A DNA stretch of 64,000 bases, from the IMG/VR virus record IMGVR_UViG_3300009093_000036, positions 131,356-195,355 of that record. The stretch is one strand, 5' to 3'. This document shows, one piece after another, positions 2,771 through 61,677 of this stretch. Source of the DNA: a virus. The notes beneath the pieces were generated by a model, which was not told the DNA's origin, did not search any database, and worked only from the letters and a program-made list of their open reading frames with translations. The position numbers and the translations under genes were made by a program. Numbering within the stretch: the stretch's first letter is position 1; each line of letters opens with the position of its first letter.

Positions 2771-2786
2771 CTCATCTCTCTGATAG
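2771..2786 (-). promoter_or_regulatory. CTATNAG-class putative phage promoter (CTATCAGAGAGATGAG)
   Basis: Matches the motif repeated upstream of several non-structural genes; 26 nt before ATG 2760. Confidence 0.55.
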
Positions 2787-2803
2787 GCGATTCATGAAGC
2801 GAA

Positions 2804-3289
2804 CTACGCGAGGAACGTACCTCGCACACCCCAGAAATCTTCGAGAGCTCGGACGTGCGAAGCAAGCAACTCGGAGATGAAGAGCGTGGGCATCGGTCCT
2901 GCACCACGAGCTCCACGCATCCTGCGCTGCAACTCCGCCGCGCTGTACTCCTTGTCGGGCTTGATGTGCTTGCGCCAGGGTCCCGTGATGGTGGAAGCAA
3001 GTCGTGTCGAGAAGAGCTGCGTCGTCTTGAAGGTTCCACGGTCTTCGTCGATCGCAGCAGCGTTCGCTGGAGGAGCGAGTTGGCTATCCGCCAGCAACAC
3101 CATGATGTTCGCCAAGCAGTGCTTCTGTCGAACCTCCTCGCTCAGACCAGAGAGCCCGCTGACGAGCTTCGCGTTACGACGCACCTCTTCGTCTGTCGTG
3201 ATCGTGGTGAGGAAGTTGCGCAGGTCTTTCTGTCGGACGTCGTCGTCTTGGAGCTTCATCACAAGAAGCCCGAGCTCGTCCGGGCTCAT
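2804..3289 (-). CDS. hypothetical protein
   Basis: Start MSPDELGLL overlaps the upstream stop; coding-like codon usage. Confidence 0.6.
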   Translation of the reverse strand: MSPDELGLLVMKLQDDDVRQKDLRNFLTTITTDEEVRRNAKLVSGLSGLSEEVRQKHCLANIMVLLADSQLAPPANAAAIDEDRGTFKTTQLFSTRLASTITGPWRKHIKPDKEYSAAELQRRMRGARGAGPMPTLFISELLASHVRALEDFWGVRGTFLA

Positions 3290-3576
3290 GCTGCCCTGAG
3301 CTGCGACATCAGCACGAGGTCCCGAACCTGAACCTCCAGAACATCCTTCAGCTCCAGCGTGAAGGCGATGTCGGCGAGCTTGTGGCGCCGACCGTACTCC
3401 GCCCACGCGATGGTGACGGCGGACTTGTTCTTGAGGTCTTCCATCAGGTGCAGCAGCTCGACGTCGCGGAGCTGCGCGAGGATGGTGTTCAGGTTGAAGA
3501 GGGTGGTCGGTCGATAGAGCCAGGTGAAGAAACGGTAGAGCCGAGCGCGGTCCGGCACGTTGTTGTTCATGTTCAC
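3286..3576 (-). CDS. hypothetical protein
   Basis: Small ORF coupled at both ends (GTGA/ATGA overlaps). Confidence 0.55.
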   Translation of the reverse strand: MNMNNNVPDRARLYRFFTWLYRPTTLFNLNTILAQLRDVELLHLMEDLKNKSAVTIAWAEYGRRHKLADIAFTLELKDVLEVQVRDLVLMSQLRAA

Positions 3577-3944
3577 ACGTTCGCGTTGAAGTCCCATTGG
3601 TCGAGCTCGGTCCAGCCTACTTCGCCGAGCTCATCGTTCGTGACCGTCGGATAGACGGCGTCCTTAGCCTGCGTGCGCAGGACGTCATCGACATCCGAGC
3701 GCGTGATAGGCCGATCGAGCTGAAGGGTGAATGTCTGCGTCGGAGGCCACCCCAGACCGATGTCGATCCTCGAAGGCGCCTTGCCGCCGCGTTCCATCCA
3801 CCTGATGAGGAGGAAGAAGCGGCGCACGCCGTTGGAGGAGTCGATGCTCTTCTGGAGGGCAACGAGGCCGTCCCTGTCGGTGCGGCGCCCGAAGGCATAG
3901 TCGAGAAGAGCTTCGTACTGATCGCGGTTGATCGAGATGGCCAT
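3573..3944 (-). CDS. hypothetical protein
   Basis: 123-aa ORF; TAGACT lies 6 nt upstream of ATG. Confidence 0.7.
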   Translation of the reverse strand: MAISINRDQYEALLDYAFGRRTDRDGLVALQKSIDSSNGVRRFFLLIRWMERGGKAPSRIDIGLGWPPTQTFTLQLDRPITRSDVDDVLRTQAKDAVYPTVTNDELGEVGWTELDQWDFNANV

Positions 3945-3953
3945 GCGCGGAGT

Positions 3954-4304
3954 CTACTCCGTTCCCTCGTCCCTTTCATTCTCGGTGCTGGGCGTCGATT
4001 CCGCGGCGAACGCTTCGTAGCCCTTCAGCAGAGCATCGGCGTACGTCATCTTCCGCAGCGAGGGGTTCAGCCCCTTCAGGTAGACGTGCTCCTCCAAGCA
4101 GTCACCGCAGACGATGGGGCCACGAATCATGCGCTCCTCGCGCTCGGGGTTCCCGCCCTCGTTGTCCCACCACGCCTTCAGGTCGGTCTGCTTCACGACG
4201 ACGCCCTTGAGGTTGATCGTCCCGCCCTTCTTCGAGAGCGGCAGCGCGAGGCTGGCCTGGACGTGGCAGAGGAGGTTTTCAGACTTGCATCCTTGGCAGC
4301 GCAT
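3954..4304 (-). CDS. putative zinc-ribbon protein
   Basis: CQGC...CGDC pairs; AAGGA SD before MRCQGC. Confidence 0.65.
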   Translation of the reverse strand: MRCQGCKSENLLCHVQASLALPLSKKGGTINLKGVVVKQTDLKAWWDNEGGNPEREERMIRGPIVCGDCLEEHVYLKGLNPSLRKMTYADALLKGYEAFAAESTPSTENERDEGTE

Positions 4305-4339
4305 ATCGATTCCTTCGGAAATACAGAGAGGTTTGGTCA

Positions 4340-4355
4340 CTATAAGGAAGATGAA
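4340..4355 (+). promoter_or_regulatory. CTATNAG-class putative promoter (CTATAAGGAAGATGAA)
   Basis: Near-identical to copies at 35387, 37388 and 61662. Confidence 0.6.
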
Positions 4356-4363
4356 AGGACAAC

Positions 4364-5092
4364 TTGATGTTCACGAAACTCAAGGAAGAGAACCGAATCA
4401 AGCCGGTGAAGAGAATGCCGGCGGAGCACGAGCTCCGGGTGCAGCTCATCAACCCGGCAGGCATGACCCCCGACGACGAGGCCTTCCTCAGCCTGCTCGC
4501 CGAGCACCCGCCGAGGACGAACATGAAGGTGGGGGATCTCGCTCGACTGCTGGAGGTGCCGAGGCATCTCGCAGGTCAGGGCCCGTACCCGAACATCTGG
4601 GAGGTGCGGCTGGTCATCAGTCGGTACCAGTTCGAGCTGCATCGGATCGTGCATCAGACCGGAGGCATGTTCGACTTCGCGGTCGCACAGATCGAAGCGA
4701 GTCGTCGACTTCCGCCGTACAGGTACCACGACCCCGTGTTCTACGCGCACGCCTTCCCGCACGGCCAGTGGCCGTCGAGCGCGGAGTGGTTCCCAGGCTG
4801 GTGCCTGAAGAAGCTGGTGCTGCGAGCTCCGACCCAGGACTGGGAGCCCATCCTCGACGAGTTCAGTACGCCGTACATGGGGTACGACCCTCGCGACTTC
4901 GGCGCCGGCGTCGTCTTCGACCTCGCCCCCGACATCTACGCCGACCAGAGGCAGAAGGCACGCCCCCTCGGCTTCGAGGAAGACAGCTTCCACCGAGCCT
5001 GTCTCCTCGGCCTCGAAGAGACGTGCATGGTGCCCTCCGTCGACGGCGACATCGACGTCACGGCGTCGGACATCATGGACATCTGGGGCTGA
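4364..5092 (+). CDS. hypothetical protein
   Basis: 242-aa ORF, AAAGGA SD, high GC3. Confidence 0.7.
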   Translation: MMFTKLKEENRIKPVKRMPAEHELRVQLINPAGMTPDDEAFLSLLAEHPPRTNMKVGDLARLLEVPRHLAGQGPYPNIWEVRLVISRYQFELHRIVHQTGGMFDFAVAQIEASRRLPPYRYHDPVFYAHAFPHGQWPSSAEWFPGWCLKKLVLRAPTQDWEPILDEFSTPYMGYDPRDFGAGVVFDLAPDIYADQRQKARPLGFEEDSFHRACLLGLEETCMVPSVDGDIDVTASDIMDIWG

Positions 5093-5111
5093 CATAAGAC
5101 AAGGAGTTCTG

Positions 5112-5369
5112 ATGGATCTCGTCAACAAGTTCTTCCGGCACTACAAGGGCGGCCTCTATTTCGTGATCGCTGTGGCCACGGACTCAGACAGAAAGAAAGA
5201 CGGAGATGACCTCGTCATCTATCGCGGAACCGACGGCCGAGTCTGGTATCGCCCTCTCACCGAGTTCACCGAGACCGTGTCTTATGGTCGGAACATCCAG
5301 AGCATCGGAGGACAGGACTTCGACCTCGGAGAGATGAAGGGCCCTCGCTTCACTCCCGAGCTCACTTGA
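5112..5369 (+). CDS. DUF1653-family protein
   Basis: FRHYKGGLYFV...LVIYRG...VWYRPLTEF signature; AAGGAG SD. Confidence 0.8.
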   Translation: MDLVNKFFRHYKGGLYFVIAVATDSDRKKDGDDLVIYRGTDGRVWYRPLTEFTETVSYGRNIQSIGGQDFDLGEMKGPRFTPELT

Positions 5370-5958
5370 TGTAGCTGTCCGCCCACTCACCTGTGGTCTT
5401 CGTGTAGTAGTTGGAGACGATCTGAGCACCGGCGAATCGACGAGCCAACCGTCCCGTGACGATGGCATCGTCGAGCGCCGCGTGCTCGGTCTCGTACTCC
5501 AAGTTGTAGTGCTCGGCGAGCTCGGTAAGCTTTGCCCTTCCCTTGTGCCCCATCTTCCGCGCCTCCACCATCGTGCAGAGGGTGAAGATATTGCGCGGCC
5601 ACTGACGAGGGTCGACCTGCTGGGCGAGCATGCGCGAGTCGAAGCCGAAGTTGTGGGCGACGATGGGGTAGCCACGAAAGAGAAAGTTGTAGCACTCGCG
5701 AGCGACATCTCTCCAGCGCGGGGCGCTGGCGACCATGGAGTCGGTGATGTTGTGCACCTTCGTCGTCTCGGGAGGGATGGGCCGTCCGGGATTGATGATG
5801 TGGTGCATCGTGTCGACGACGCGGTTCCCCTCCATCAGCACTGCCCCGAACTCCACGATCTTGTCCTCCTTGCTGAAGCCCGTCGTCTCCAGGTCGTAGA
5901 TGATGATGGGGACGCTCATCCACGTCATGGAGGCGATCTTCGTGATGTCGATGTTCAT
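5362..5958 (-). CDS. DEDDh 3'-5' exonuclease (DnaQ/epsilon-like)
   Basis: YDLETTG, VAHNFGFD, HAALDDA motifs. Confidence 0.9.
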   Translation of the reverse strand: MNIDITKIASMTWMSVPIIIYDLETTGFSKEDKIVEFGAVLMEGNRVVDTMHHIINPGRPIPPETTKVHNITDSMVASAPRWRDVARECYNFLFRGYPIVAHNFGFDSRMLAQQVDPRQWPRNIFTLCTMVEARKMGHKGRAKLTELAEHYNLEYETEHAALDDAIVTGRLARRFAGAQIVSNYYTKTTGEWADSYIK

Positions 5959-6566
5959 TCGTTCTCCTTGGGTACCTCACCATGCAACGTCTTGTGCACG
6001 GCAGCGTCCGGGTTGATGAAGGCTGCGTGCATCGCCTTCACAGCGATCACGCAAAAGCCCTCTACCTCCTTCATAGGGAGGATGAGGCCCTCACCATCAC
6101 TCGTCGTGGGGAGGCGTGCGAGGAGATCACGAACTGCCTGCGCAGCAACGGCTTGCCGTGCAATGAAGTCGGGGGAGACGTCCTCGACAAGATCATGATG
6201 TTCTTCGGGGTTGCGAAGCACCGACGAGAACTGATCCTCCCACATCCGCAGGATGATCAGCATGAGCTGACCAGCGGGGAGGAACCCCTTCGCGACGAGG
6301 ACACCACGCCTCGCATACTCTTCGGCGAGATGCTTCGCCGCATCAGCAGCACGAGCGTGGAGCTCTGCGGTCTTGACTCCCTGCGGCTCTGGCATCGTGT
6401 GCTCGACGAGAGCCTGATCGAAGAGGACCTTCGCCACTACCTCCGCTACTTCGAGGATCATCCCGATCTCGCAGTGGTGCTGAAGGATCTTCTGGACCTT
6501 CGGGTTGAGGAGACCAGCTCCCTTGACCGTACCGAGCAGATGCTGGAGGGACATGGCGGCGAGCAT
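5955..6566 (-). CDS. hypothetical helical protein
   Basis: ORF coupled to the exonuclease; start uncertain (6566 or 6554; track extends to 6620). Confidence 0.6.
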   Translation of the reverse strand: MLAAMSLQHLLGTVKGAGLLNPKVQKILQHHCEIGMILEVAEVVAKVLFDQALVEHTMPEPQGVKTAELHARAADAAKHLAEEYARRGVLVAKGFLPAGQLMLIILRMWEDQFSSVLRNPEEHHDLVEDVSPDFIARQAVAAQAVRDLLARLPTTSDGEGLILPMKEVEGFCVIAVKAMHAAFINPDAAVHKTLHGEVPKENE

Positions 6567-6591
6567 ACGCTCGTCTGCTGTCGGTAGCAAG

Positions 6592-6847
6592 AAGGAGTGA
6601 AAGGAGTGATTTTCGACCAACTTCGAGGTCGATGGTCTTCAGCCTTTCCTCCTATGGCTGAATCGAGTAAAAGGAGTGATCTTTGACACGACCCACCAAC
6701 ACTAACCCTTTTGACACCACAATACCATTACCCCTCACTCTACCCTTACACTACTTACTCTCTTTACTACTTTAATACTCTTCTGAGAATCAGAGGAAGG
6801 TGTGGAGAAGGGGAGGTGGTGATCCAAAATCACTCTCTTTACTCTTT
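6592..6847. repeat. Divergent intergenic region with GAGT[G/A]A repeats, two TTTGACAC copies and a 71-nt G-free tract (candidate origin/control region)
   Basis: AAGGAGTGA at 6592, 6601, 6671; inverted TCACTC/TTACTC at 6735, 6755, 6830, 6839; no G from 6714 to 6784. Confidence 0.55.
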
Positions 6848-6851
6848 CCAG

Positions 6852-6867
6852 CTATGAGGTAGAAGAG
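6852..6867 (+). promoter_or_regulatory. CTATNAG-class putative promoter (CTATGAGGTAGAAGAG)
   Basis: Degenerate motif copy 24 nt before ATG 6876. Confidence 0.45.
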
Positions 6868-6875
6868 GAGACGCG

Positions 6876-7433
6876 ATGCCCCAAGACAAGCGAACCCACT
6901 TCACGGACAAGGAGAAGGATGAACTCCTCGACCCTCTCCGCATGGACATGGCGAACGGCATGACCGACGATCAAGCTGCGACGCTGACCGGCATACCTCT
7001 TCGTTCGGTGCAGCGCTGGAGGTTGCAGCATGGTCTGAAGAGACCGAGAGGCTTCGAGTCGAAGGAGCTCGCCGACATCTACGCGATCAGCACTCTCGGA
7101 GAAGCTCTCGGTGATGTCCGGCATCGTGTTCAACACAGTCCGGTCTCGGGGACATGGGAGCCTCCGATGTTCGTGGTGCGCGAGCACCTCGACTACTCGC
7201 TCTTCCTTCGGCTCATCGATGCAGCGCATCGTGTCCTCGGCCTCTCCCCCTCCGACATCAGCTCCGCCATGGGCGTCAGCCCTCGCAGCGTTGAGCAAGG
7301 TCTTGAGATCTACACCCGGCACCTCAACACCACCACGAAGAAGTGCCTGATGTGCGAGTCGTTGGTGGACCCGAATGTCAACTCGAACTTCTGCACCCAG
7401 CTCTGTGAGGAACTCTATGTCCGGTCTCGCTGA
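6876..7433 (+). CDS. HTH DNA-binding protein with C-terminal Cys4 finger
   Basis: MTDDQAATLTGIPLRSVQRWR HTH; second HTH-like SPSDISSAMGVSPRSVEQ; CLMC...CTQLC. Confidence 0.7.
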   Translation: MPQDKRTHFTDKEKDELLDPLRMDMANGMTDDQAATLTGIPLRSVQRWRLQHGLKRPRGFESKELADIYAISTLGEALGDVRHRVQHSPVSGTWEPPMFVVREHLDYSLFLRLIDAAHRVLGLSPSDISSAMGVSPRSVEQGLEIYTRHLNTTTKKCLMCESLVDPNVNSNFCTQLCEELYVRSR

Positions 7434-7992
7434 TACCCTCGAACATCAACTTCTGCTCCTCACCCGTCCGGTGCGTGCACTGAAGCGCTTCGGAGTGAAG
7501 GATGCATTGAAGGAACGCTTCGAGCACACCTGGCACCAGCGTCCGCTCTCCTCACACTGGGCGGCAACGATCGGTATGTGGGGAGGTGTCCACAGCCACA
7601 CCGAGATCATGCAGCGCTCGAACACGGACTATGTAGCCCTGAAGAACTTCAAGGCGCAGAACGCCCTCATCACGAGGGTCGGCAACATGGCTGCGCGCAA
7701 GCCACAGTGGACGCTCGCCGTCGACGTCTTCGTGAAGTGGCAGGCGGAGAAGGAGCGCAAGGTCCCGCTGGAGGAGAAGGTCTTTTCGATCTCCAGTCAC
7801 TTCGGCATCCTTCCGATCGAGGCACGCATCTACATCGACCACGTCACGGACATCTGCAAGGACGTCGGCTTCACGCCCGTCGAGCTCCTCGACAACTATG
7901 ACGTCATCGAGTTGGTGTGGGATCAGCACCTCGCGATGATCGACGCGGCTGTCGTTTCGTCGTACCGTCCAACAAGCCATGCCGACACCTAA
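7417..7992 (+). CDS. hypothetical protein
   Basis: Coding-like ORF overlapping both neighbours; start MSGLADT. Confidence 0.6.
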   Translation: MSGLADTLEHQLLLLTRPVRALKRFGVKDALKERFEHTWHQRPLSSHWAATIGMWGGVHSHTEIMQRSNTDYVALKNFKAQNALITRVGNMAARKPQWTLAVDVFVKWQAEKERKVPLEEKVFSISSHFGILPIEARIYIDHVTDICKDVGFTPVELLDNYDVIELVWDQHLAMIDAAVVSSYRPTSHADT

Positions 7993-8479
7993 GAAGCCGT
8001 ACGAGGACTTCCTCAAGGCGCATCTTCCGAAGCTGCCGGACTTCATCGAGACGAACAAGCCTCGGCTGACCCCGACGTTCGAGCTCGGCCCGCCGGTCAC
8101 AGCGATCCACGACAAGTCCCTGATCGAGGTGTACTTCCCCGACCTCCGCCCGCTCGTCGCAGATGTGTTCGGTCGCCCCGAGCACTACAGCGACGCCCAG
8201 AAGGCGATCGTGAGTGCGCTCGAACAGAAGAAGCCTCTCCCTCACGGGACGACGAAGCAGGACCTCGCCGACATCGTGTTCCGCTTCACGGAGAAGACGG
8301 AGCATCGGAAGAAGCGGGAAGCTCTCATCCAGACCGCCCAGAAGAAGATCGAGAAGGCGATCGCGGAAGAGGAAGACCCCACCATCAAGAAGATCTTGGA
8401 GCGTGACCTCCCGACGTTCGAGAAGCAGGACTTCCCGGCGATGATCGGGACGTCCGGCAAGGACATCAAGATCATCTAA
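7979..8479 (+). CDS. hypothetical charged protein
   Basis: 166-aa K/E-rich ORF with high GC3. Confidence 0.7.
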   Translation: MPTPKKPYEDFLKAHLPKLPDFIETNKPRLTPTFELGPPVTAIHDKSLIEVYFPDLRPLVADVFGRPEHYSDAQKAIVSALEQKKPLPHGTTKQDLADIVFRFTEKTEHRKKREALIQTAQKKIEKAIAEEEDPTIKKILERDLPTFEKQDFPAMIGTSGKDIKII

Positions 8480-8511
8480 AACAAAAGGCTCCGAGGTTCA
8501 TCCTCGGAGCC
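8478..8511 (-). terminator. intrinsic terminator
   Basis: GGCTCCGAGG-5nt-CCTCGGAGCC 10-bp stem followed by a T-run on the minus strand, between convergent genes. Confidence 0.8.
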
Positions 8512-8536
8512 CCCTGCCCCCGCGCCTCTTCCGGAA

Positions 8537-10705
8537 CTACATGCCCGCCGGCGACGGCGGACGCATACCCGGCTGGACGCCAGCGTACCGAAGGGGAGTG
8601 GGTGTGGCGGTCGCCAGATGCTGGACGGCATCCACCCCTTTCTTTGCCCCCACGAGACCAGCACCGACAGCACCGACGGCACCAAGACCCAGCGCGAGAC
8701 GGCCGTAGCCGCTGTGCTTGACCTGGTAGTCAGGATTCGCGAGAGCTCGGCCGAGCTCGGCGGCGGCCTTCAGGCTGCCCTGGTTGCCGATCATGTCACT
8801 CTGCCCTGCGACGATCGGCTCCTGAACCTTCGGCGCCGTCACACGTGCGATCGGCTTCGCGAGGGCGTGCGTGATGCCGGGGGCGACCAGACCCAGACCA
8901 CCGATCTCGACGGCCGGATGATGCAGGGCGTGAGCGAGACCTTCGGCGACGGTGTGGCCCTCAGCAGCAAGAGCACCCATCCGCCCACCACGCAGCATCA
9001 GACGCTTCAGTCCGCCGGCGGCAGCATCGGCGAGGTACGGTGACGCGAGCGTCGCGATGCCGACGTCGTCAATGCGATCGGCGATGCGTCCAGTGCGGGG
9101 GTCCTCCGAGGCCGTCTTGCCCGGCATCGGACCGACGCCGCCGTACTGGTGCGGCACCGCCATGTACCCCATCAAGCCCGTGCCGGCAGCCGCACCGACG
9201 AGACCGGCACGGTTCAGCCCCTGGTTCATCACGTTGTGCTGCTGTTCGAGACGGCCTGCTGCCTGCCGGAGCGCCTCTGCCTGCCCACCACGCGATGCCG
9301 CCACCGATTGAGCGAGCTCGGGCTTCATGGTCGCTGCCGGCGTCGAGGAGCCACCCCAGGCCGTCGGGGACATGACCTGCTTCTGCTGGGTGTTGAGGGC
9401 GATGCCTCCCGCCCCGCCTGCCCCGCCCGCGGCCCCGGGCTTGGCGGCGAGGGTGCCACGACCCAGCGCCGGCGGAGCTCCGGCGTGCATCGTCCCAGCG
9501 AGAGCGGGATCCGCGATCGTCTTGCCGGCGATCTGGTGAGCCTCCCGAGCCGCGATCTCCGCCTGACCCGCCTGAGCTCGCAGCGTGTTGAGCTGATGAG
9601 CCCCCTGCGTCTTGAGCGCCGAGATGCCAGCGCCGCCGGCGGCACCAAGCCCAGCCCCAACGAGAGCTCCGCGAAGAGCTCCCTGTTGCCGCTGGCCTGG
9701 ATCGGCGTGCATCAGACCGCCGAGACCGCCGGCGACGGCGCCGATGCCTGCACCCACCCCAGCATGACCGAGGTGACTGATCGCTGTTGGCGAGACCGCG
9801 AGCGCGATCTTCTGGCCATGGTTGTCCTTGTCGAGCACCTTCATCTTGAACTCCTCGAAGGGCATCTCCTTCATCGAACCGAAGAAGCGGGGGTCGTTGT
9901 ACTGCTTGAGGTAGGCAGCCTTCGCCTCCTCTGCGGAGTCGAACCCGAGCATCACCTTCTGCTCGTCGAACTTCGTCCAGGCGACACCGTCCTTCTTGAT
10001 CTCACCCTCGGGCTTCTTCATCTGGTCGACCAAGAAGACCTTGTCCGACTCCTCGTTGGGGCCGAGGTAGACATCGACGTGGTCGCCATCGGTGCCCTTC
10101 GTCATACGGATGTAGCCGTAGTCGAAGTGCATGAAGGTGGAGCCCTTCTCCTTGCCGTGCGGGTCGTACCAGGAGCGCTTGCTGCCCTTGCGGTTCTCGA
10201 TCGCGATGTCGAGGCCCTTGAACATCCGCTCGCCGTGGAGCTTGAAGTTCGAGAGCTTCGCCCCATCAGCGAAGCGGATGTCGTCCGTCGCTGACTTCTT
10301 CTCGGCGCGGTCCCGCTCCTGCTTCTCCTTGAGCTTCTTGGGGTTGTCCATGAAGTACTGGATCATGTCCCCGCACGACTTCTTCTCGCTCTCACCTTCG
10401 ACCTTCTTCAGGCGGATGTAGTAGTCGGGCCGCTCGCGCAGATGATCGATCGCGATCTGCTTGGCGACGGCGGGATGATCGGTGTGCTCCATCTCCACCT
10501 TCTCGCCGGCGTGGAGCTGAACCTTCGGTACCCCAGAGCCACTGTCGTGGGCGTGAGCGAGCAGGCCGCTCTTCTTGACGTGCTCGGGCAACGCCTTGAT
10601 GTCCTTCGTCTCGTGAGCCCAGGCGATCGCAGTTCCCTTGGGGAGCTTCCCCTCCGCTTCCATCGCGAAGAACTTGCGCTGCTGTGCCTTGCTCTTGAAG
10701 GGCAT
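8537..10705 (-). CDS. multidomain putative virion protein: MPFKSKAQ N-terminal motif + DUF5661-like + InPase (inorganic pyrophosphatase-like) + Gly/Ala-rich hydrophobic segments
   Basis: GEKVEMEHT...AIDHLRERPDYYIRL; IAIENRKGSKR...DYGYIRMTKGTDGDHVDVYLG...DQ...DEQKVMLGFDSAEEAKAAYL; KxA/KxS motifs at domain borders. Confidence 0.75.
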   Translation of the reverse strand: MPFKSKAQQRKFFAMEAEGKLPKGTAIAWAHETKDIKALPEHVKKSGLLAHAHDSGSGVPKVQLHAGEKVEMEHTDHPAVAKQIAIDHLRERPDYYIRLKKVEGESEKKSCGDMIQYFMDNPKKLKEKQERDRAEKKSATDDIRFADGAKLSNFKLHGERMFKGLDIAIENRKGSKRSWYDPHGKEKGSTFMHFDYGYIRMTKGTDGDHVDVYLGPNEESDKVFLVDQMKKPEGEIKKDGVAWTKFDEQKVMLGFDSAEEAKAAYLKQYNDPRFFGSMKEMPFEEFKMKVLDKDNHGQKIALAVSPTAISHLGHAGVGAGIGAVAGGLGGLMHADPGQRQQGALRGALVGAGLGAAGGAGISALKTQGAHQLNTLRAQAGQAEIAAREAHQIAGKTIADPALAGTMHAGAPPALGRGTLAAKPGAAGGAGGAGGIALNTQQKQVMSPTAWGGSSTPAATMKPELAQSVAASRGGQAEALRQAAGRLEQQHNVMNQGLNRAGLVGAAAGTGLMGYMAVPHQYGGVGPMPGKTASEDPRTGRIADRIDDVGIATLASPYLADAAAGGLKRLMLRGGRMGALAAEGHTVAEGLAHALHHPAVEIGGLGLVAPGITHALAKPIARVTAPKVQEPIVAGQSDMIGNQGSLKAAAELGRALANPDYQVKHSGYGRLALGLGAVGAVGAGLVGAKKGVDAVQHLATATPTPLRYAGVQPGMRPPSPAGM

Positions 10706-10711
10706 GCCGCG

Positions 10712-10717
10712 ATCCTA
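10712..10717 (-). promoter_or_regulatory. -10-like TAGGAT 6 nt upstream of ATG (leaderless class)
   Basis: TAGGAT-CGCGGC-ATG with no SD. Confidence 0.55.
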
Positions 10718-10729
10718 GCGCATTTCGCC

Positions 10730-10745
10730 CTATCAGCGAAGAGAA
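10730..10745 (+). promoter_or_regulatory. CTATNAG-class putative promoter (CTATCAGCGAAGAGAA)
   Basis: 27 nt before ATG 10757, followed by AAGGAG SD. Confidence 0.5.
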
Positions 10746-10756
10746 GGAGACACATC

Positions 10757-11290
10757 ATGGGCGAGAGCATTCACTGCCGACAAGACGACGACGGCACCTA
10801 CCGTTTCCGCATCTGGGGAAGCACCGTCGATAGCTACCTCACCACCGACCTCACGGAAGAGGAAGTTCATCGCTACGTCCGGCAACGTGGCATGGAGTCA
10901 GCACTGTCGACGTTCGAGATCGATCGGGGCATCGAGCGAGCGAAGAGCGTGGGCTCCTCCGACTACTACACGACGAAGCCGGCATCCCCACTTAGTCAGC
11001 CGTGGAGGAAGGAACGGATCACCCACGAGGAAGCCACCAACGCCACCGATCTCAGCGACATGTTCTTCTTGCTGGCTCACGAGAAGTACATCGACAACGA
11101 CGAGGAGGACACCATCTTCGAGGGTCCGTTCCTGCTGGAGAGGATGAAGACCGATACAGTCGAGCCCAACCAGCGCATCTTCTCTCCGAAGACTGTCGAG
11201 AGCTTCGAGGCGTGGGCGGACCTCTCGTGCTTCGGGGAGGTCTTCCGTGGTGAGGGCTTTCAGATCGTGCGGGTCCTCCCGCCGAAGTGA
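10757..11290 (+). CDS. hypothetical protein (stand-alone cassette)
   Basis: Start MGESIHC with AAGGAG SD; own promoter motif and terminator. Confidence 0.7.
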   Translation: MGESIHCRQDDDGTYRFRIWGSTVDSYLTTDLTEEEVHRYVRQRGMESALSTFEIDRGIERAKSVGSSDYYTTKPASPLSQPWRKERITHEEATNATDLSDMFFLLAHEKYIDNDEEDTIFEGPFLLERMKTDTVEPNQRIFSPKTVESFEAWADLSCFGEVFRGEGFQIVRVLPPK

Positions 11291-11291
11291 G

Positions 11292-11319: not shown

Positions 11320-11472
11320 GCTCCCAACACCAACTCCGAATCACCTATCAATACAATAGGAGATGGGGATTTTCCTGAAGGGGATTCCGAAACAACAACA
11401 AGCCAGAGAAATCTGTTGTGTGGCCCCGAAAGGGGCCGCTGCTTTGCTCTGAACTTGATGTCGTTTTGCCTG

Positions 11473-50687: not shown

Positions 50688-50765
50688 CGCGCTGCCCTCG
50701 TAGTGGGTCAACGAACCCCGCGGAAATAGCCTCTCCGCAGACCTATCAACATGAAGGAGAGAGCC

Positions 50766-55263: not shown

Positions 55264-55292
55264 GAGGAGGGGCCGCAAGCCCCTCTTCTTTT
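55264..55292 (+). terminator. intrinsic terminator
   Basis: GAGGAGGGGC-5nt-GCCCCTCTTC-TTTT. Confidence 0.85.
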
Positions 55293-57249
55293 ACCCGCCA
55301 GCTCCGCCGAGGGAGAGACGGCGGGGCGGCTTCTGGCTCGGCAGCGGTCGCATGTCCACGCCACCAGTGTCGGGGGATGCCGACTGACCGACGATGTGCT
55401 GCTTCACGAGCTCGGCGAGCTCGGGCTGCGTCTGAGCGAGGTGATCGATCGACTGCGTCTGCATGTCGCGCGGCTGCGCCGAGATCTGATTCGCCAAGCC
55501 CGCGGCCACCTGATCGAGCGGAATGCCCGTCGGAGCGGCCGTCAGTCCCGAGCCCATCTCGTCGGAGAACGGGGTCGAAGGTGCGGCCCCCATCCCACCA
55601 CCGGCAGCTCCAGCCGCTGCACCCGGGTTGTTGGGATCCATGGGCATCGGCATCAGGCCCTTCTGCTGCAACTTCAACTGGGCCTCCGCCATGATCTCCT
55701 GCGCCTGCGCCTGGTAGCGCGCCTGCACGACCATCGCCTCGCCCTGGATCTCGGCCTGGATGAGCTGCTGCTTCTTCAGCGCCTCGGCACGGATCTGCGT
55801 CTCCTTCACCTGGAGGCTCGACTCGTCCTCGACGTTGAAGTCCATCATCGCGAGCAGCGACGTGTCGCTGATCTTCGACTGCTGGTTCATCGACGCCGCG
55901 AGCGCCATGCGCTGAAGGTCGTCCGCCATCTTGAACGGCTTGAAGCGAGCAGTCGGAACGCTCCAGTTCAAGTAGTGGCCGGTGCGACCCATGAACCAGT
56001 GGATGAGCCGGTAGTGGTTCTGCACGTTCGACAAGAAGAAGTTCTCGACCATACGCATCGAGACCGACGTTCCTGCGTACGTCCCCTGACCGAAGACGAG
56101 GTCGGACGGGAAGCCCATGCCGATCGCGATGAGCTCCGCGATCATGCGGATCTCCTGCATCAGCAGCAGAGCCTTGCCGTTCTCTCCGATGATCTGATGG
56201 CCGAGCGGGAACGGCAGGATGCCGTAGTAGCTGGGGTCGACGCGCTGACGAGCGAGCTCGCGCTGGATGTGCCCACGCCAGTCGGCGAGGTTGATCGTGC
56301 TGAACGGATCGGCGCCGGCGGTCGCCGGCTGCGGGTACAAGAAGATCTGCGGGACCATGTGCGTGAGCAACACGGTCTCCTGGGACTTCTTCATCAACTG
56401 CATGTAGAAGGCGTCCTTCATGACCGGCATGAGGAGCGGAACACCCCAGCCCTGGTCCATGCTGGACAGCGCCGGACGGCGCATGTGGAACACCTCGCGC
56501 TTGTCGAAGACGAGGGAGCGCTTCTCCTTGACGGCCTGGAGGAAGAGCTGAGGAGTCGTGGCGATGATGTCCTTGCGACCCATCGCCACGAGGCTGCGGA
56601 ACTTCGCAGAGAGGTCGAGGGAGTAGTCCATCCTCCCGGTCGCCTCGTTGTGGAAGATCGAGACGTTCTCCGGGTTCCAGCGGACCATGTTGATCTCGCT
56701 GGGCTTCGGCTGGTAGTCGTCCGTGGCGTTCGCGAAGTCGCTCTGTCCGCACTTCGGGCACGTCAGGTAGAAGCGATGATCGGTGTACCGCCAGTGCCGG
56801 CGGAAGTTGATCGCATCGATGCGGGCGTTGCACGCCGAGCAGATGATCAACTTGCGGAAAGGGAACGAGGGGGAGATCAGCGCGTTGCCGTACACGTAGT
56901 AGTCGAGGTTCACCTCGAACTGGTGCATGCGGTAGTTGAGGTCTCCCAGCATCAGGTTCCGCCAACGATCGACGACGCCGCGATCCTTGTGCGTGAAGAT
57001 GATGTCGGTGATCGGGTACTCGGCCGCCTTCGTGCAGATGGCGTTGATGACGCCGTGCGTGAGGAAGTAGTAACGGCAGAAGCCGAAGAGGTTGCGGACC
57101 GTCTGCGGCGTGTACGTCGACGCCTGATCGAAGAACGGGTTCGCGAACGACTGATACTGCCGCCCGAGGATGCTGGTCCGGTTAAAGGAACCGCCGAGAG
57201 AAGCTCCGCGGTTCTCCGCCAGCCCCATGGGTCCGCCGAAGAACGTCAT
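55291..57249 (-). CDS. portal protein with Zn-ribbon insertion
   Basis: DYYVYGNA, RWNPENV, VFHMRR...GWGVPLL, ELIAIGMGFP portal-like motifs; Q/M/P-rich tail; CSAC...CPKC insert. Confidence 0.8.
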   Translation of the reverse strand: MTFFGGPMGLAENRGASLGGSFNRTSILGRQYQSFANPFFDQASTYTPQTVRNLFGFCRYYFLTHGVINAICTKAAEYPITDIIFTHKDRGVVDRWRNLMLGDLNYRMHQFEVNLDYYVYGNALISPSFPFRKLIICSACNARIDAINFRRHWRYTDHRFYLTCPKCGQSDFANATDDYQPKPSEINMVRWNPENVSIFHNEATGRMDYSLDLSAKFRSLVAMGRKDIIATTPQLFLQAVKEKRSLVFDKREVFHMRRPALSSMDQGWGVPLLMPVMKDAFYMQLMKKSQETVLLTHMVPQIFLYPQPATAGADPFSTINLADWRGHIQRELARQRVDPSYYGILPFPLGHQIIGENGKALLLMQEIRMIAELIAIGMGFPSDLVFGQGTYAGTSVSMRMVENFFLSNVQNHYRLIHWFMGRTGHYLNWSVPTARFKPFKMADDLQRMALAASMNQQSKISDTSLLAMMDFNVEDESSLQVKETQIRAEALKKQQLIQAEIQGEAMVVQARYQAQAQEIMAEAQLKLQQKGLMPMPMDPNNPGAAAGAAGGGMGAAPSTPFSDEMGSGLTAAPTGIPLDQVAAGLANQISAQPRDMQTQSIDHLAQTQPELAELVKQHIVGQSASPDTGGVDMRPLPSQKPPRRLSLGGAGG

Positions 57250-58199
57250 GGCACGATCCTACCCGATCCCGCTGTTGCGTTCGCGATCGGCTTCTGACCG
57301 ATGCGGCCAAGACGACTCGCTGCGAAGTCCGTGATGCCACCGACGACGTTGCCGGCGGCGATGGGGAGACCTCCGAAGAGGAGACCTCCACCGATGTTCG
57401 CCGCACCTCGCACAGCCTTCTCCTGCATCGAGGGGCCGCCTGTCGCTCGCTCGTCTCCCTTGGCGAGAGAAGCGGCCGTGATAGCCACCGGAGCTCCAAG
57501 ACCGAGAGCGACGCTCGTGCGGCCACCAGAGCGGACCTGGTTCCAGATCGCTTTCGAGGCTTCGCGCGGATTCGTAGCCATCGCCTTCACGGCGCCGGGT
57601 GCGTTCGTCATCCCGAGCTCACGGAAGCGATCGCCGACTGCACCTTCTGCTGTCAGCCCCTTCACCTGCTCGTGCAGGTCCTTGTGGATGGCCTCGGTGC
57701 CCTTCTGCCGGGCGACGTAGTCCTTCATCGACGCCCCTTGCGGGAGGTGCTGAAGGTCGTCTTGAGCTCGCAGGTTCAGCAGACGGGCCTGGCGTGAAGA
57801 TGTGCCGGAGCCTGCGATGCCGATGCGATCGAGGTACGCCGAATCACCTGCACCGCGACCAGTGAGGCCGTGCACCTGACGTTCCGCGAAGTTCGACAAG
57901 CCCTCGCCTGCACGAGCGACCGTCTTCTTCGCGATGTCCATGCCCTGAAGGCGAGGATGCAACAGCATCGTGTCGCGAGCTGCGTGAGCGATGCCTCCTC
58001 CGATGCCACCTAGCGTGCCTCCGATGGCTGCTCCTTGAAGAGCGCCTCCGAGGTAGTTGCGCTCTCCTTCGCCCTTCAGCGCCTCACGCCCTGCACCGAG
58101 AGCGGCACCGACGCCTGCACCGATACCGGCGGTCGCACCGGGATTCTTGGCGATGAGACGACCGACGCTCGCCAGATTGGGCATGGAGACCTTCAGCAT
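57246..58199 (-). CDS. glycine-zipper putative internal virion/membrane-active protein
   Basis: Multiple GxxxG hydrophobic helices. Confidence 0.6.
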   Translation of the reverse strand: MLKVSMPNLASVGRLIAKNPGATAGIGAGVGAALGAGREALKGEGERNYLGGALQGAAIGGTLGGIGGGIAHAARDTMLLHPRLQGMDIAKKTVARAGEGLSNFAERQVHGLTGRGAGDSAYLDRIGIAGSGTSSRQARLLNLRAQDDLQHLPQGASMKDYVARQKGTEAIHKDLHEQVKGLTAEGAVGDRFRELGMTNAPGAVKAMATNPREASKAIWNQVRSGGRTSVALGLGAPVAITAASLAKGDERATGGPSMQEKAVRGAANIGGGLLFGGLPIAAGNVVGGITDFAASRLGRIGQKPIANATAGSGRIVP

Positions 58200-58239
58200 C
58201 GTGTGCCTCTTGTACCACGCCGTGGCCCATCCGTGAGGA

Positions 58240-59205
58240 TCAGCCCTTCAGCATGTGGAGCTGTTCGAGGAGCTGAGCCCGCACTTGGTTGCGGTACTCG
58301 TTGTGCGTGAGGAGCTTGTAAGCGGCCTCGCCAGCTCCATCCGTCCCGAGACCTTCAACTGCTTGTTCGAGGGGAAGTCGGCGGCGCTCGTTGAAGAGCT
58401 TCGAGGTCTGATCGCGCAGAGCCTCGAAGACGCCAGGAAGGTGCTTCAGGTCCTTCGATCCACAGGCGACGCACTTGATGTCGTGGTCGTCCTTGTCCTT
58501 CGTTCCGCAGTTGCCACAGAGGATGTGTCGATCGTCGAGCTCCTCCTGGGCGAACTGGATCGGCGGAGGGGCGTACGCGATGCCGCGGTCACGCAGCACG
58601 GCAGCCGTGAACTTGTCGATGTCCTCCGCAAACGGGCGCTTGCGGTCCATCATCTTCATGGTGTCGACCCCGGCCATGATGAAGCCGATCTCGGGGCGCT
58701 CCATGTACACGAAGCTCGGGGGACGACCGGCGAGGCCCGTCACCACCCAGTGGAACTGCTCCCACTGACGCCACGGAGCCGGACTCATCAGCACGACGCG
58801 AGCTGCGAGCATCTTCGTCCAGACCGAGTCCGAGATGAGGATGTTGTCGCGCTTCAGCATGCCGCGTAGAGTTTCGGGCTCCCACGTCGCGAACTCGGTG
58901 CCGTACCGATCCACGAGCATGAGGGTGAGGATCATCGGGTGCGCATTCGGATGGCGCCAGATGTTCTTCTCCGTCACCGACGGGAGGGCTTCCTCCGTAC
59001 CGAGACGAGCAGAGGCGAACTTCGAGATGCCTGGCGGGAGGTCAGCCTGCATCTCGGGAAGCTCCGCGACCACACCCTGAAGGAGTTCCTCCGGGGTGTG
59101 GTCCTCGTAGCTGATCTCCGCACGCTTCTCGATGTCCCCGAGCTGCGGGTCAGCGACGGCCGTGGGGTGCGGCCATCGCGACATGCTCATGCGCTCAAGG
59201 GACAT
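58240..59205 (-). CDS. hypothetical protein with Zn ribbon (KxA family)
   Basis: KRAE, KFAS; WEPETL; CGNC...CVAC; start could be 59190. Confidence 0.65.
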   Translation of the reverse strand: MSLERMSMSRWPHPTAVADPQLGDIEKRAEISYEDHTPEELLQGVVAELPEMQADLPPGISKFASARLGTEEALPSVTEKNIWRHPNAHPMILTLMLVDRYGTEFATWEPETLRGMLKRDNILISDSVWTKMLAARVVLMSPAPWRQWEQFHWVVTGLAGRPPSFVYMERPEIGFIMAGVDTMKMMDRKRPFAEDIDKFTAAVLRDRGIAYAPPPIQFAQEELDDRHILCGNCGTKDKDDHDIKCVACGSKDLKHLPGVFEALRDQTSKLFNERRRLPLEQAVEGLGTDGAGEAAYKLLTHNEYRNQVRAQLLEQLHMLKG

Positions 59206-59211
59206 CTACGA

Positions 59212-60294
59212 TCACGCCGACTTCGGGATGTAGACCAGGACGTACTCGCGCACGCCGTTGATCGGGATCGAGCTGTCGGGGATGTAGCGGCCGTAGGGCC
59301 CCGCGTTCGCGATCGACGAGTCGTCGACCACACCCGCCGTGGGAACCGACCAGGCGCTGTTCGCGTCCGCACGGCTCGCCTCGCGGAGAACCGCCACCGC
59401 CTCGACGTCGCTGATCGGGTCCATCGCCAGACCGAGCTCGGTCTCCAGCGGAGCGACCGCGCACGTGCCCGTCGTGTTGCCCTGCGCGGGGATCGTGATG
59501 CGCTCGACCGTCAGGAAGAACTTGTCGGTGGAGACCGTCGAGCCGCCGCCGTTCGGAACGGCGATGTTCGAGGTGATGGTCTTGCCGCGCACGTCACGAC
59601 CACGCACGACGATCGTCGTCGAGATCCAGCTCGCGTCGCTGTTGAAGATGAACGAGATGCGGCGTGCATACTTCGCCGGACGGTTGCCCCGACGCGAGCG
59701 GTTCCACTTCGTGTTGTCCGTGCCGTCGATGACCTGCGCGACCGTGTTCGAGGTGAGCGACGCGATCGATGCCGTGTCCGCCGCCACGCCGAGCGTGAGC
59801 TGCGCCGCCGTGCCGCTGGCCGCCGGGAGGGTGACCTGCGTCACCGTCGCGAAGTAGTTGAGCGTGGTCGTCGTGCCCGCGCCCGCCGCCGTCGTGATGT
59901 CCTCGACCAGGGCGTGACCGTCGGCGTCCGTGCCCGTGATCTCGACGACGCCGCCGAGCCAGTTCGCCGGCGTGCCACCACCACCGACGGTGAAGGTGAC
60001 CTTCTTCGGGGTGTTGATGATCGCCGGGCCCGTGCCGGGAGCGAGAACGCCATCGAAGTCCGTGTTCACGAGCGTGGTCGGCGACGCCGTCGACGCGAAC
60101 TGGAGCTTGATGCCGTTCGCCAGCACGAGGCCGGTGGACGGGCCGACCCGACGCATGACGTGGGGCGTCGCCTGCTCGATGACGTCGAACGCGTCCGAGA
60201 CGTCCTTGCGGACCTTGCCGACTTCGCCGGCGACGCCGCTCTGCCCGCGAGTGATGTGCTCGACGCGCGGACCCTTGGTGAATGCCAGACTCAT
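59212..60294 (-). CDS. putative head fibre/decoration protein with tandem beta domains
   Basis: Internal duplication (GTDADG..EDI..YFATV / GRDVRG..SNI..FFLTV); N-terminus shared with the 11473 gene. Confidence 0.6.
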   Translation of the reverse strand: MSLAFTKGPRVEHITRGQSGVAGEVGKVRKDVSDAFDVIEQATPHVMRRVGPSTGLVLANGIKLQFASTASPTTLVNTDFDGVLAPGTGPAIINTPKKVTFTVGGGGTPANWLGGVVEITGTDADGHALVEDITTAAGAGTTTTLNYFATVTQVTLPAASGTAAQLTLGVAADTASIASLTSNTVAQVIDGTDNTKWNRSRRGNRPAKYARRISFIFNSDASWISTTIVVRGRDVRGKTITSNIAVPNGGGSTVSTDKFFLTVERITIPAQGNTTGTCAVAPLETELGLAMDPISDVEAVAVLREASRADANSAWSVPTAGVVDDSSIANAGPYGRYIPDSSIPINGVREYVLVYIPKSA

Positions 60295-60315
60295 GGTGCT
60301 CTCTCCTCGACTCGC

Positions 60316-61620
60316 TCAGCTCTTGGAATCGTCGGCGGCGAGTCGCGCGATGACGATTTTCTGCGGGTCCGGCATCGAGACGAAGGTCCCGATTGGGTCT
60401 TTTTGGAAGTCCTTCCGGAAATCCATTCCGAAAGCTCGATCGAGGCTCTGGTAGCGGTTGGTGGCGAGGTCGGTCAACTGCATGTCGTTGACGTACTCGT
60501 TCCCTTCCGACCAGGACCACATCGTCTTGTTCTCCGCGACCTTTCCGAAGACGGCTTGGAAAGGGTCACGGAAGCCAAGGGGTGCATCGTACTTCGTCGC
60601 AGCCCCGGTGGCGAGGTCTGCCTCGTGCAGGATCTCGACCATCACGTGAGCGGGCGTGGAAGCACGCTTCTCCAGCAGGACTTCGTAGACGGCCTCGTGG
60701 CCGGTCCCCTCGAAGTCGCGGATGCGAGCCATGAGCTCGACGTCGATGTTCACGCCGTACTCGTGCCCGGCGTACTTCGCGACGAAGCCGGTGACGGGGA
60801 GCCCGAGCTCCTCCAGGCGGTTCGAGAGGTTGACGGCGAACTCGCGCCGATCGTTGAGCTCGAACTTCTCCCAGTGCTCGTCGAAGTACGCCGAGGCGGT
60901 CTTCACGTTCTCGTACGAGTCGATGGGGTAGCGCTGCGTGGTCGGCATCGCGTACTTCGAGACGGCCTTCGCGGTCTTGTCGACCGGCCGGTGAGAAGTG
61001 AGATCACCGCCGTGCTCCCACGCCCCCTGCTTCGAGCTCGGGGAACTGGAAGTCCCCTTCGCCGTGTTCCGGGGAGAAGGCAGCGTTGCGATCGAGCCGG
61101 ACATCGGCATCATCTCGGTGCCGTTCAGGTCCGCACGCTTCTGCATGTCCGAGGACATGCCTGCCTGCGCAGCGCGGAAGCCGTCCATGTTCGACTTGGA
61201 CTGCGCGTGTGCGTTCTCCATGCGGCTTTTCACGTCGAGAGCCCCGACTGCGGCATCGAGCACGCTCGCTCGCTTCACGAGCTCGTCCGGAGGCTGAAGG
61301 TCGTACCACTGGCAGGCCGCGATGAGGTTTCGGGCTGCGGACTTCTGCATCGTCGGCGGGAGGAGGTGACCCTTCTCCAGGAAGTAGACGATCGACGTCG
61401 TGACGTGGGAGTCGTCGTGCATCGCGTACTTGCGCACGATGCCATCCCCGTTCGTGGCGACGAGGGCGAAGAGACGATCCGGGAGCAGCGCGAGCTCCGC
61501 CGGATCGAGCAGCGTCGAGTCGCCGAGCGCCTCCGGAAGCGCCTGCCCGGCGAGCTTGTCCCGCAGGACCGTAGCCGTCGGATCGTCGTAGATGTCGAGG
61601 ACCACGTCAGACAGGTGCAT
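60316..61620 (-). CDS. tandem DUF6582-like domain protein (KxA family)
   Basis: LPDRLFAL...RKYAMHD and YAMPTTQRYPIDSYENV; KRAS x2, KRAD, KTAS. Confidence 0.65.
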   Translation of the reverse strand: MHLSDVVLDIYDDPTATVLRDKLAGQALPEALGDSTLLDPAELALLPDRLFALVATNGDGIVRKYAMHDDSHVTTSIVYFLEKGHLLPPTMQKSAARNLIAACQWYDLQPPDELVKRASVLDAAVGALDVKSRMENAHAQSKSNMDGFRAAQAGMSSDMQKRADLNGTEMMPMSGSIATLPSPRNTAKGTSSSPSSKQGAWEHGGDLTSHRPVDKTAKAVSKYAMPTTQRYPIDSYENVKTASAYFDEHWEKFELNDRREFAVNLSNRLEELGLPVTGFVAKYAGHEYGVNIDVELMARIRDFEGTGHEAVYEVLLEKRASTPAHVMVEILHEADLATGAATKYDAPLGFRDPFQAVFGKVAENKTMWSWSEGNEYVNDMQLTDLATNRYQSLDRAFGMDFRKDFQKDPIGTFVSMPDPQKIVIARLAADDSKS

Positions 61621-61627
61621 GGGGTCA

Positions 61628-61633
61628 AGAATA
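61628..61633 (-). promoter_or_regulatory. -10-like TATTCT 7 nt upstream of ATG (leaderless class)
   Basis: First gene of the minus block; no SD. Confidence 0.45.
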
Positions 61634-61661
61634 CGGCGGCAAAGCCGGGGCGGTCAATCCG

Positions 61662-61677
61662 CTATCAGGAAGATGAA
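61662..61677 (+). promoter_or_regulatory. CTATNAG-class putative promoter (CTATCAGGAAGATGAA)
   Basis: Consensus copy, 30 nt before ATG 61692, followed by AAGGAGG SD. Confidence 0.6.

Follow-up and report, generated by a model that had tools for sequence, protein, structure and literature searches.

A recurrent CTATMAG element as a putative promoter class in a clade of soil phages with a fused beta-beta' RNA polymerase

A DNA element with the core CTATMAG (M being C or A) recurs upstream of genes in a large phage genome, IMG/VR record IMGVR_UViG_3300009093_000036, here called G000. The genome is 195,355 bp long, has 62.5% G+C, is complete according to CheckV and originates from a rhizosphere metagenome. 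Its terminal 64 kb (G000:C1:131356-195355) are the stretch analysed here; this stretch is called the window, and coordinates are those of the window unless marked otherwise. An earlier note on this DNA, made from its letters, had proposed a promoter class for non-structural genes. That proposal is supported by the enrichment of the element, by its fixed orientation and distance to genes, by its placement after terminators, by its conservation before orthologs in related phages and by the presence alongside it of promoters of a distinct, host-like type, while the reader of the motif is still something that we infer. We consider it fairly probable, judging from sequence, that the element is a phage promoter specific to this clade and read through a sigma factor of the phage, most likely one bound to the fused polymerase.

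All eight copies listed earlier are present in the window, seven of them as exact CTATVAG (V being A, C or G) and one, at 50743, as a partial match (Table 1). Taken alone, the heptamer does not recur above chance: it is found 7 times against 5.2 expected, and at least 7 copies were reached in 23 of 100 shuffles. The longer context shared by the copies is clearly non-random, as the extended 16-mer pattern CTATVAGNNRRRWGAR occurs 7 times against 0.02 expected and none of the 100 shuffles reached this number. Measured from the C of CTAT, the nearest start codon is 23-30 nucleotides (nt) away at all eight sites, one more than had been counted before. The close ATG at the 37388 site opens a frame of only 10 codons, and the likely gene start lies 79 nt away. 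Purine runs resembling a Shine-Dalgarno (SD) sequence follow most of the sites, in agreement with the earlier note.

The comparison was extended to four genomes of the clade, G000 and three whole relatives: G002 (195.8 kb, with terminal repeats), G001 (191.7 kb) and G003 (168.9 kb), whose reciprocal best hits to G000 have mean identities of 81%, 52% and 42%, respectively. Genes of G000 were called with a codon model and an SD bonus, which gave about 265 genes and 95% coding DNA. A matrix built from G001 and G003 only finds 30 sites of at least 16 bits in G000, against 0.2 in first-order Markov nulls, and 25 of the 30 are intergenic. It recovers all eight previously noted sites at this threshold and adds two more in the window (11345+ and 6076-). 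A separate matrix, iterated on G000 itself, yields about 25-30 strong sites; almost all of them lie between genes and have a gene in the same orientation 22-52 nt downstream. When heptamers are counted in the 80 nt upstream of all G000 genes, CCTATCA, CTATCAG and CCCTATC rank at the top. Independent k-mer enrichment puts CCTATCA/CTATCAG first in G002 and G001 and CCTATAA/CTATAAG/TATAAGC first in G003. Matches to CTATNAR (R being a purine) are intergenic in 27/44, 31/49, 31/56 and 21/32 cases in the four genomes, although intergenic DNA makes up 4-7% of them (binomial p 1e-20 to 1e-26). The gene downstream of these intergenic matches is co-oriented in 24/27, 27/31, 30/31 and 21/21 cases. The motif is thus not equally frequent inside genes or in antisense orientation, and this outcome favours it.

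Placement and conservation point in the same direction. At 21 of the 93 sites in the four genomes the core is preceded, at a distance of 4-11 nt, by a strict terminator-like hairpin with a T-run, compared with 1% of random positions and 12 of 331 other upstream regions. Before reciprocal-best-hit orthologs the motif is kept in 20 of 22 cases in G002, 8 of 13 in G001 and 3 of 4 in G003; before other orthologs the background rate is 3-4% (7/197, 5/149 and 4/100, respectively). This conservation at orthologous positions extends to relatives with proteins only 30-50% identical. In alignments of diverged upstream regions the motif forms an island of identity. A GyrB protein query of IMG/VR gave eight related loci with 41-92% identity. 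The motif stands just after gyrB in L004, L005, L006, L007, L008 and L009, and directly before gyrB in L006, L007 and L008; upstream of gyrB, L004 and L005 have their closest copy at a distance of about 640-660 nt.

The anatomy of the element was derived from the 93 sites, collected with the search pattern CTATNAR. It is 16-24 bases long and is composed of an A/T-rich triplet (positions -6 to -4), a near-invariant core C-CTAT[C/A]AG, one free base and the downstream half AAGRTGAAGG (positions 8-17). Within the core, C occupies position -1, C-T-A-T at 0 to 3 is invariant, C or A stands at 4 and A at 5. Position 6 is G in 77 sites, A in 16 and T in none, and T is likewise absent there from every CTATNA site listed. 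The A at the second position of TATMAG is present in 93/93 sites, a value fixed by the search pattern; matrix matches obtained free of the pattern and lacking the CTAT core are low-scoring and lie mostly in coding sequence. The statement that TATNAG is not a canonical -10 box therefore stands: the hexamer closes with G or A instead of T, and the sites have no -35 element in common. Apart from the A/T-rich positions -6 to -4, no column upstream of the core exceeds 0.3 bits between -40 and -7. Enriched pentamers upstream are terminator-stem words, and a loose GGAAA box 19-23 nt upstream is found in only about 15 of the 93 sites. A sigma-70 scan of window positions 1-12000 found no promoter at any motif site. 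Start-codon distances are bimodal, with one group at 21-33 nt (peak at 25-27) and another at 41-56 nt, the range being 21-56 nt or more; in long leaders, judged by eye, GRTGAAGG is usually followed at once by a hairpin. Conservation of the downstream half is as good with leaders of at least 40 nt as with short ones, so this half is not just an SD sequence.

Genes with recognisable function downstream of the motif are gyrB, the helicase unit 61692-63667, an ATP-dependent DNA ligase outside the window and a protein with a double helix-turn-helix (HTH). No family could be assigned to the remaining ones, and Pfam and PHROGs searches with 30 motif-associated or large proteins left most of them without a family. 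None of the genes downstream of the motif matched a structural PHROG. No site is present in the minus-strand structural blocks 11473-34865, 37944-50675 and 55291-61620, and the blocks of tail sheath, major head protein and terminase are motif-free. The claim that all copies accompany non-structural genes is consequently borne out as far as none of these genes matches a structural family and the structural blocks lack the motif, but with most genes lacking a family it can be checked only in part.

Another group of genes is preceded by a different signal. In G000, 14 genes carry a TAnnnT hexamer, in most cases TAGGAT or TAGACT, that lies 5-9 nt ahead of the start codon, against 2 in a shifted control. 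They include the polymerase gene, a gene for a 722-aa (amino acid) protein with an inorganic pyrophosphatase (InPase) domain and the virion-cluster genes for proteins of 689, 652 and 434 aa, as well as genes for proteins of 1182, 1227 and 605 aa elsewhere in G000. The class is conserved in all four genomes; the arrangement before the polymerase gene is the same in G000, G001, G002 and G003, and G003 often adds a TGG extension. This second class looks like an ordinary bacterial sigma-A-type promoter with leaderless starts, and as such it hints at a host using leaderless mRNAs. By its likeness to Streptomyces promoters, the leaderless TAGGAT/TAGACT type tentatively suggests an actinobacterial or similar host. 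A host-related check for a WhiB gene found none. Several pairs of the two classes stand back to back: a minus-strand TAGGAT (10712-10717), belonging to the gene of the 722-aa protein, lies 12 nt from the plus-strand CTATCAG at 10730, and the -35 element of the minus-strand promoter 61618-61657 ends 5 nt before CTATCAG at 61662. Complexes on divergent promoters only 5-12 nt apart would not easily be bound together, so that such pairs could act as a switch. The 722-aa protein itself (8537-10705, minus strand), made from a leaderless TAGGAT promoter by its sequence, carries DUF5661 in addition to the InPase domain.

The phage polymerase is a single polypeptide of 2065 aa in which beta and beta' are fused. 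Its best match among phages has 29-32% identity, with no cultured relative. Its gene is the only one for an RNA polymerase found in the genome: the fused enzyme has no paralog, and a search with the T7-type polymerase family gave no match, its control being silent too. Metagenomes contain more than 120 clusters of homologs with lengths of about 2060-2080 aa, and some longer homologs, of about 2400-2980 aa, contain intein or homing-endonuclease domains. The metal-binding motif (residues 1403-1412) reads GGDIDGD, compared with NADFDGD in cellular enzymes, and D1406, D1408 and D1410 are invariant in 30 homologs.

A protein of 262 aa belonging to the sigma-70 family has its gene about 96 kb ahead of the window. 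It was reached through a weak six-frame match to Sigma70_r2 and through comparison with gp10 of Salmonella phage Arash, which is annotated as sigma factor (1.3e-11, same gene order); Pfam on the 262-aa protein alone gave no match and the Sigma70_r4 family search was negative. Thirty homologs were collected from metagenomes, some of which carry PF04539. Their profile aligns with RpoD/SigA chains at E 1e-10 over regions 2.3-4.2 (query 81-254, RpoD 376-565). The AlphaFold model has a predicted local distance difference test score (pLDDT) of 74, and the 50 best listed Foldseek matches are sigma chains or sigma-containing polymerase complexes, with probability 1.0. In the RpoD alignment the positions corresponding to Q437 and T440 and an aromatic residue at the Y430 position are kept and the W433/W434 pair is not, in the numbering of E. 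coli sigma-70. Upstream of the sigma gene (locus G000:C1:34875-35992), a 110-aa gene and a CTATCAG site are present in all four genomes, and the locus is syntenic with Arash gp9-gp10. With the site ahead of it in 4/4 genomes, the sigma operon is probably autoregulated.

In the predicted complex of the two proteins, sigma residues 68-85 lie on polymerase residues 1189-1240, the expected clamp-helix region, with a score of 0.81 against 0.01 for the best control; this is the textbook interface. The mark used for such predictions is reached by 58 of 80 solved complexes and by 2 of 110 mismatched pairs. At least 48% of contacts recur between runs, and the partners have pLDDT of at least 68. As sigma and beta' are a textbook pair, the pass may reflect likeness to solved holoenzymes and is not a proof. 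Recognition of the motif by the phage's own RNA polymerase or by a phage factor, suggested by the earlier note, appears plausible from sequence and is strengthened by the sigma-70-family gene outside the window together with the predicted contact between sigma and the clamp helices.

On these grounds we propose the following scheme. The core would be read as a -10-type element (T-12, A-11, T-10) by the 262-aa sigma, most likely bound to the fused beta-beta' polymerase. The transcript would begin around the G of GRTG, some 13 nt past the C of CTAT, which places TATMAG at -12 to -7. The resulting leader would have 10-15 nt and carry the SD sequence, or 30-45 nt and open with a hairpin. A start a few nt downstream of TATNAG, as previously expected, is possible as one of two registers. 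The motif would drive non-structural units, namely those of gyrase B, helicase, ligase, the HTH protein and many small genes, and the sigma operon, whereas host-type TTGACC/TAGRMT leaderless promoters would serve the gene of the polymerase and the large ones of the virion cluster. By analogy with Arash, the holoenzyme might be packaged in the virion and read the motif sites early, and host polymerase would make virion proteins and new polymerase late. Only tentatively do we extend this scheme to the whole clade of about 170-200-kb soil phages. They may possess a minimal sigma-dependent system, made of the 2065-aa fusion and the 262-aa sigma without alpha and omega, with its own promoter grammar of 18-24 bp (a TAT-MAG core without T-7, no -35 and a GRTGAAGG initiation region). 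Such a system would be packaged in virions and serve early and middle transcription, and its promoters, 5-12 nt from host-type ones, could work by mutual exclusion as a temporal switch.

Several observations weigh against this scheme. The bases nAAGAT at positions 7-12, through their A (position 8) and T (position 12), resemble the TAGGAT box and so offer the second register, in which the start would move about 6 nt downstream; short leaders, however, have a conserved SD content, and this speaks against such a shift. A region-4 helix-turn-helix is present in the sigma though the sites share no -35, and a full protein from sigma-2 to sigma-4 could equally read the TTGACC/TAGACT class, leaving CTATMAG to another factor. 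The plus-strand unit at 34946 opens with TAGGAT and not with the motif. The idea of packaging in virions is taken over from Arash, a phage with about 30% identity in the polymerase. Finally, Arash, Vibrio phage D69, Rhizobium phage Y65 and two more distant IMG/VR relatives, G006 and G007, contain 0 matches to the motif, so the link between the fused polymerase with its sigma and the motif rests on one clade. The broader idea that the motif is tied to the polymerase family as a whole was rejected because of these five more distant phages.

The promoter may instead be read by host core polymerase carrying the phage sigma, with the fused enzyme serving another class or task. Phage sigmas that redirect host core are the common case (T4 gp55, SPO1 gp28), and the 262-aa protein keeps the sigma-2 helix binding the clamp helices, a surface conserved across bacteria. 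We nevertheless hold this to be unlikely, as the phage encodes a complete beta-beta' enzyme, its sigma is predicted to dock on the clamp helices of that enzyme, and the sigma homolog of Arash occurs in virions together with phage beta and beta'. Reading by the polymerase core or by some other phage factor, in the manner of the non-virion polymerases of phiKZ and AR9 with their short motifs overlapping the start, would free the sigma for the TTGACC/TAGACT class. Such promoters do exist in the genome, with its regions 2 to 4 the sigma is built like factors for -35/-10 promoters, and the conserved R-T-G close to the supposed start bears a loose likeness to the late T-3 A T G+1 of phiKZ (PMC7598289). 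However, TTGACC-N18-TAGACT with a TGn extension matches ordinary bacterial sigma-A promoters and needs no phage factor, and the invariant TA of the CTATMAG core fits recognition at -12/-11. The sigma also keeps residues that match the Q and T contacting -12 and an aromatic residue at the position for A-11, and we judge this possibility quite improbable.

It may also be asked whether the element is a promoter at all or a signal in leaders acting on RNA or binding a protein to DNA, such as a processing site, a translational operator or the site of a regulator like the double-HTH protein (6876-7433). The motif always lies in the leader region close to SD sequences, and its downstream half is purine-rich like an SD sequence. 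Conserved leader motifs without an assigned function have a precedent in the start-associated sequences of actinophages; the motif described here differs from them, as its distance to the start codon is not fixed and its downstream half is conserved apart from the SD sequence. We give such a role little credence. At many sites an intrinsic-terminator hairpin stands immediately upstream, so that transcription has to begin anew there, and a start distance varying over 21-56 nt or more shows that the motif is not tied to the ribosome site. The asymmetric motif opens most plus-strand islands with a divergent upstream gene, where read-through could not reach it, and its copy at 11345 precedes a short terminator-bounded unit without a gene. 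An ordinary promoter of the host, read by its primary or an alternative sigma, seems to us very improbable. The TAT opening the core does resemble the first half of a -10 box. Yet T-7, together with A-11 the most conserved -10 position, is found in 0/93 sites, no -35 is present and the sigma-70 scan finds no promoter at the sites in 1-12000. A separate canonical class serves other genes in these genomes, and an 18-nt consensus including the start region, shared by phages with 42-81% mean protein identity, is tighter than is usual for host promoters.

Among characterised systems, T4 late promoters (TATAAATA at -10, read with gp55, gp33 and the gp45 clamp) are similar in having a -10 element only and no -35, and in depending on a phage protein of the sigma family, as we propose for this phage. 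Between TATAAATA and the core TATAAGnA/TATCAGnA, 5-6 of 8 positions agree, position 6 being G here and A in T4. T4 uses host core, a sigma with region 2 only and a sliding-clamp activator, whereas here the sigma spans regions 2-4 and the phage has its own polymerase; moreover, T4 late promoters are without the conserved AAGRTGAAGG start region. Promoters of jumbo-phage polymerases include the AT-rich early ones of phiKZ, its late T-3ATG+1 and the late A-11ACA-N6-TA of AR9 (PMC7598289). They resemble the present case in the cellular-type polymerase of the phage, in a phage-specific motif found bioinformatically upstream of gene sets and in conservation reaching the start. In contrast, the polymerases of phiKZ and AR9 consist of 4-5 polypeptides in virion and non-virion pairs without a recognisable sigma-70-family factor, the motif sequence is unrelated, and their genomes are AT-rich compared with 62% G+C here.

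Salmonella phage Arash, of a polymerase-encoding lineage of Caudovirales (PMC7481178), has virions with abundant homologs of beta, beta' and sigma (PMC10585845), and its pyrophosphatase was detected in virions as well. Shared traits are a homologous polymerase (about 30% identity), a syntenic homologous sigma, a protein with a pyrophosphatase domain and the position of the polymerase among virion genes. Beta and beta' are separate genes in Arash and fused in this phage. The CTATMAG pattern has 0 matches in the 180.8 kb of Arash, and its first 50 kb contain only scattered genic CTATNAR and some sigma-70-like promoters. In papers on polymerase-encoding Caudovirales including the Arash group we found no promoter analysis. 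The preferred model also recalls the scheme of N4 (virion polymerase for early genes, host polymerase for late ones), as in the model a packaged phage enzyme serves non-structural genes and host-type promoters serve virion and polymerase genes. The N4 virion polymerase, however, is a single-subunit T7-like enzyme using hairpin promoters on single-stranded DNA, and packaging here is suggested by analogy. Promoters of the T7 group (23 bp, -17 to +6) have in common a long, tightly conserved phage-specific consensus including the initiation region, often a position after a terminator, and the vicinity of the SD sequence. They are read by a single-subunit polymerase without sigma, whereas reading through a sigma is proposed for the present element. 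The motif sequence itself recurs in none of these known systems.

Phage-specific promoters for phage polymerases are already known as a kind. No promoter is known for phages that combine a cellular-type beta-beta' with a sigma factor recognisably of the sigma-70 family, and the motif offers them a concrete DNA target; a literature search for CCTATCAG or CCTATAAG as a phage promoter found no paper. Two genes, for the fused polymerase and the small sigma, could suffice to reconstitute the system on a 20-bp promoter, and it might become an orthogonal expression system. The same set may serve as a compact model of how sigma-2 reads a -10 element lacking T-7, and as a test of enzyme function without alpha and omega. 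Because the fused polymerase family is common in metagenomes, the two-class layout, with the phage motif on replication genes and leaderless host-type promoters on the polymerase gene and virion genes, gives a large uncultured group a model of its infection programme that can be tested.

Table 1. Motif sites, host-type promoter sites and recognisable genes (window numbering unless marked; bit scores from a matrix trained only on G001 and G003)
Feature	Sequence	Position	Strand	Bits	Context	Conservation
Motif site, exact CTATVAG at 2786-	CTATCAGAGAGATGAG	2771..2786	-	23.0	26 nt before 199-aa gene 2161-2760	kept at orthologs in G002, G001
Motif site, exact CTATVAG at 4340+	CTATAAGGAAGATGAA	4340..4355	+	24.3	27 nt before 241-aa gene 4367-5092	kept in G002, G001, G003
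Motif site, exact CTATVAG at 6852+	CTATGAGGTAGAAGAG	6852..6867	+	17.3	24 nt before 185-aa double-HTH gene 6876-7433	kept in G002 only
Motif site, exact CTATVAG at 10730+	CTATCAGCGAAGAGAA	10730..10745	+	23.8	27 nt before 177-aa gene 10757-11290	kept in G002, G001
Motif site, exact CTATVAG at 35387+	CTATCAGGAAGGTGAA	35387..35402	+	23.3	28 nt before gyrB; overlaps 3' end of preceding 151-aa gene	
Motif site, exact CTATVAG at 37388+	CTATAAGTAAGATGAA	37388..37403	+	22.4	after gyrB; leader of about 79 nt, then gene 37467-37898	
Variant motif site (A for G at position 7)	CTATCAACATGAAGGA	50743..50758	+	16.1	opens unit 50766-55263, divergent from polymerase gene	orthologous sites CTATCAA in G002, CTATCAG in G001
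Motif site, exact CTATVAG at 61662+	CTATCAGGAAGATGAA	61662..61677	+	24.5	30 nt before 193-aa gene 61692-62273 and helicase 62273-63667	kept in G002, G001, G003
Extra motif site, absent from earlier list	CTATCAATACAATAGG	11345..11360	+	16.1	intergenic; no annotated gene downstream	copy in G002 at 125940
Extra weaker motif site	CTATGAAGGAGGTAGA	6061..6076	-	17.7	within coding sequence 5955-6566, 118 nt before gene 5362-5958	
Polymerase gene promoter, host-type		50682-50711	-		TTGACC-N18-TAGACT, 6 nt, GTG start; leaderless	
Second-class sites		10703-10717, 43330-43345, 57247-57261, 61618-61633	-		TAGGAT, TAGACT or TATTCT 6-7 nt before start codon, leaderless; sometimes TTGACC 18 nt upstream	
Second-class site		34905-34910	+		leaderless type	
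gyrB		35415-37364	+			
Tail sheath protein gene		14848-17949				
Major head protein gene		27135-28247				
Large terminase gene		37944-39776				
Helicase gene		62273-63667				
Beta-beta' RNA polymerase gene, 2065 aa		44478-50675	-		Rpb2_6 at 8e-51; Rpb1 domains 1, 2, 5	
Sigma-70-family gene, 262 aa		G000:C1:34875-35663	-		outside window	

As to the source of the data, no phage records near-identical to G000 were found. Sequencing runs matching window positions 33000-41000 were DNA only (one rhizosphere metagenome, possibly the source, and small shares in two from soil), with no RNA run among them.

The two additional sites in the window differ in their surroundings. The minus-strand site at 6061-6076, inside a coding sequence, may be an internal promoter or a chance match. 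The copy at 11345 is directed into the 3' end of a convergent structural operon and sits between terminator-like hairpins at 11292-11321 and about 11413-11445, which leaves a unit of about 80-90 nt without an annotated gene. The unit 11292-11445 is a candidate for a small RNA or a micro-open-reading-frame of 29 codons; it had no Rfam match, in line with a search over the whole window that matched no Rfam family, and its fold z-score is only -1.9. The leader 37404-37466 (plus strand), which follows the motif site after gyrB, is conserved among relatives at the nucleotide level (ATGCCNCCGTTC...TGGGCCCAGGCAT) without its reading frame being kept, which speaks for a conserved RNA element and against a peptide.

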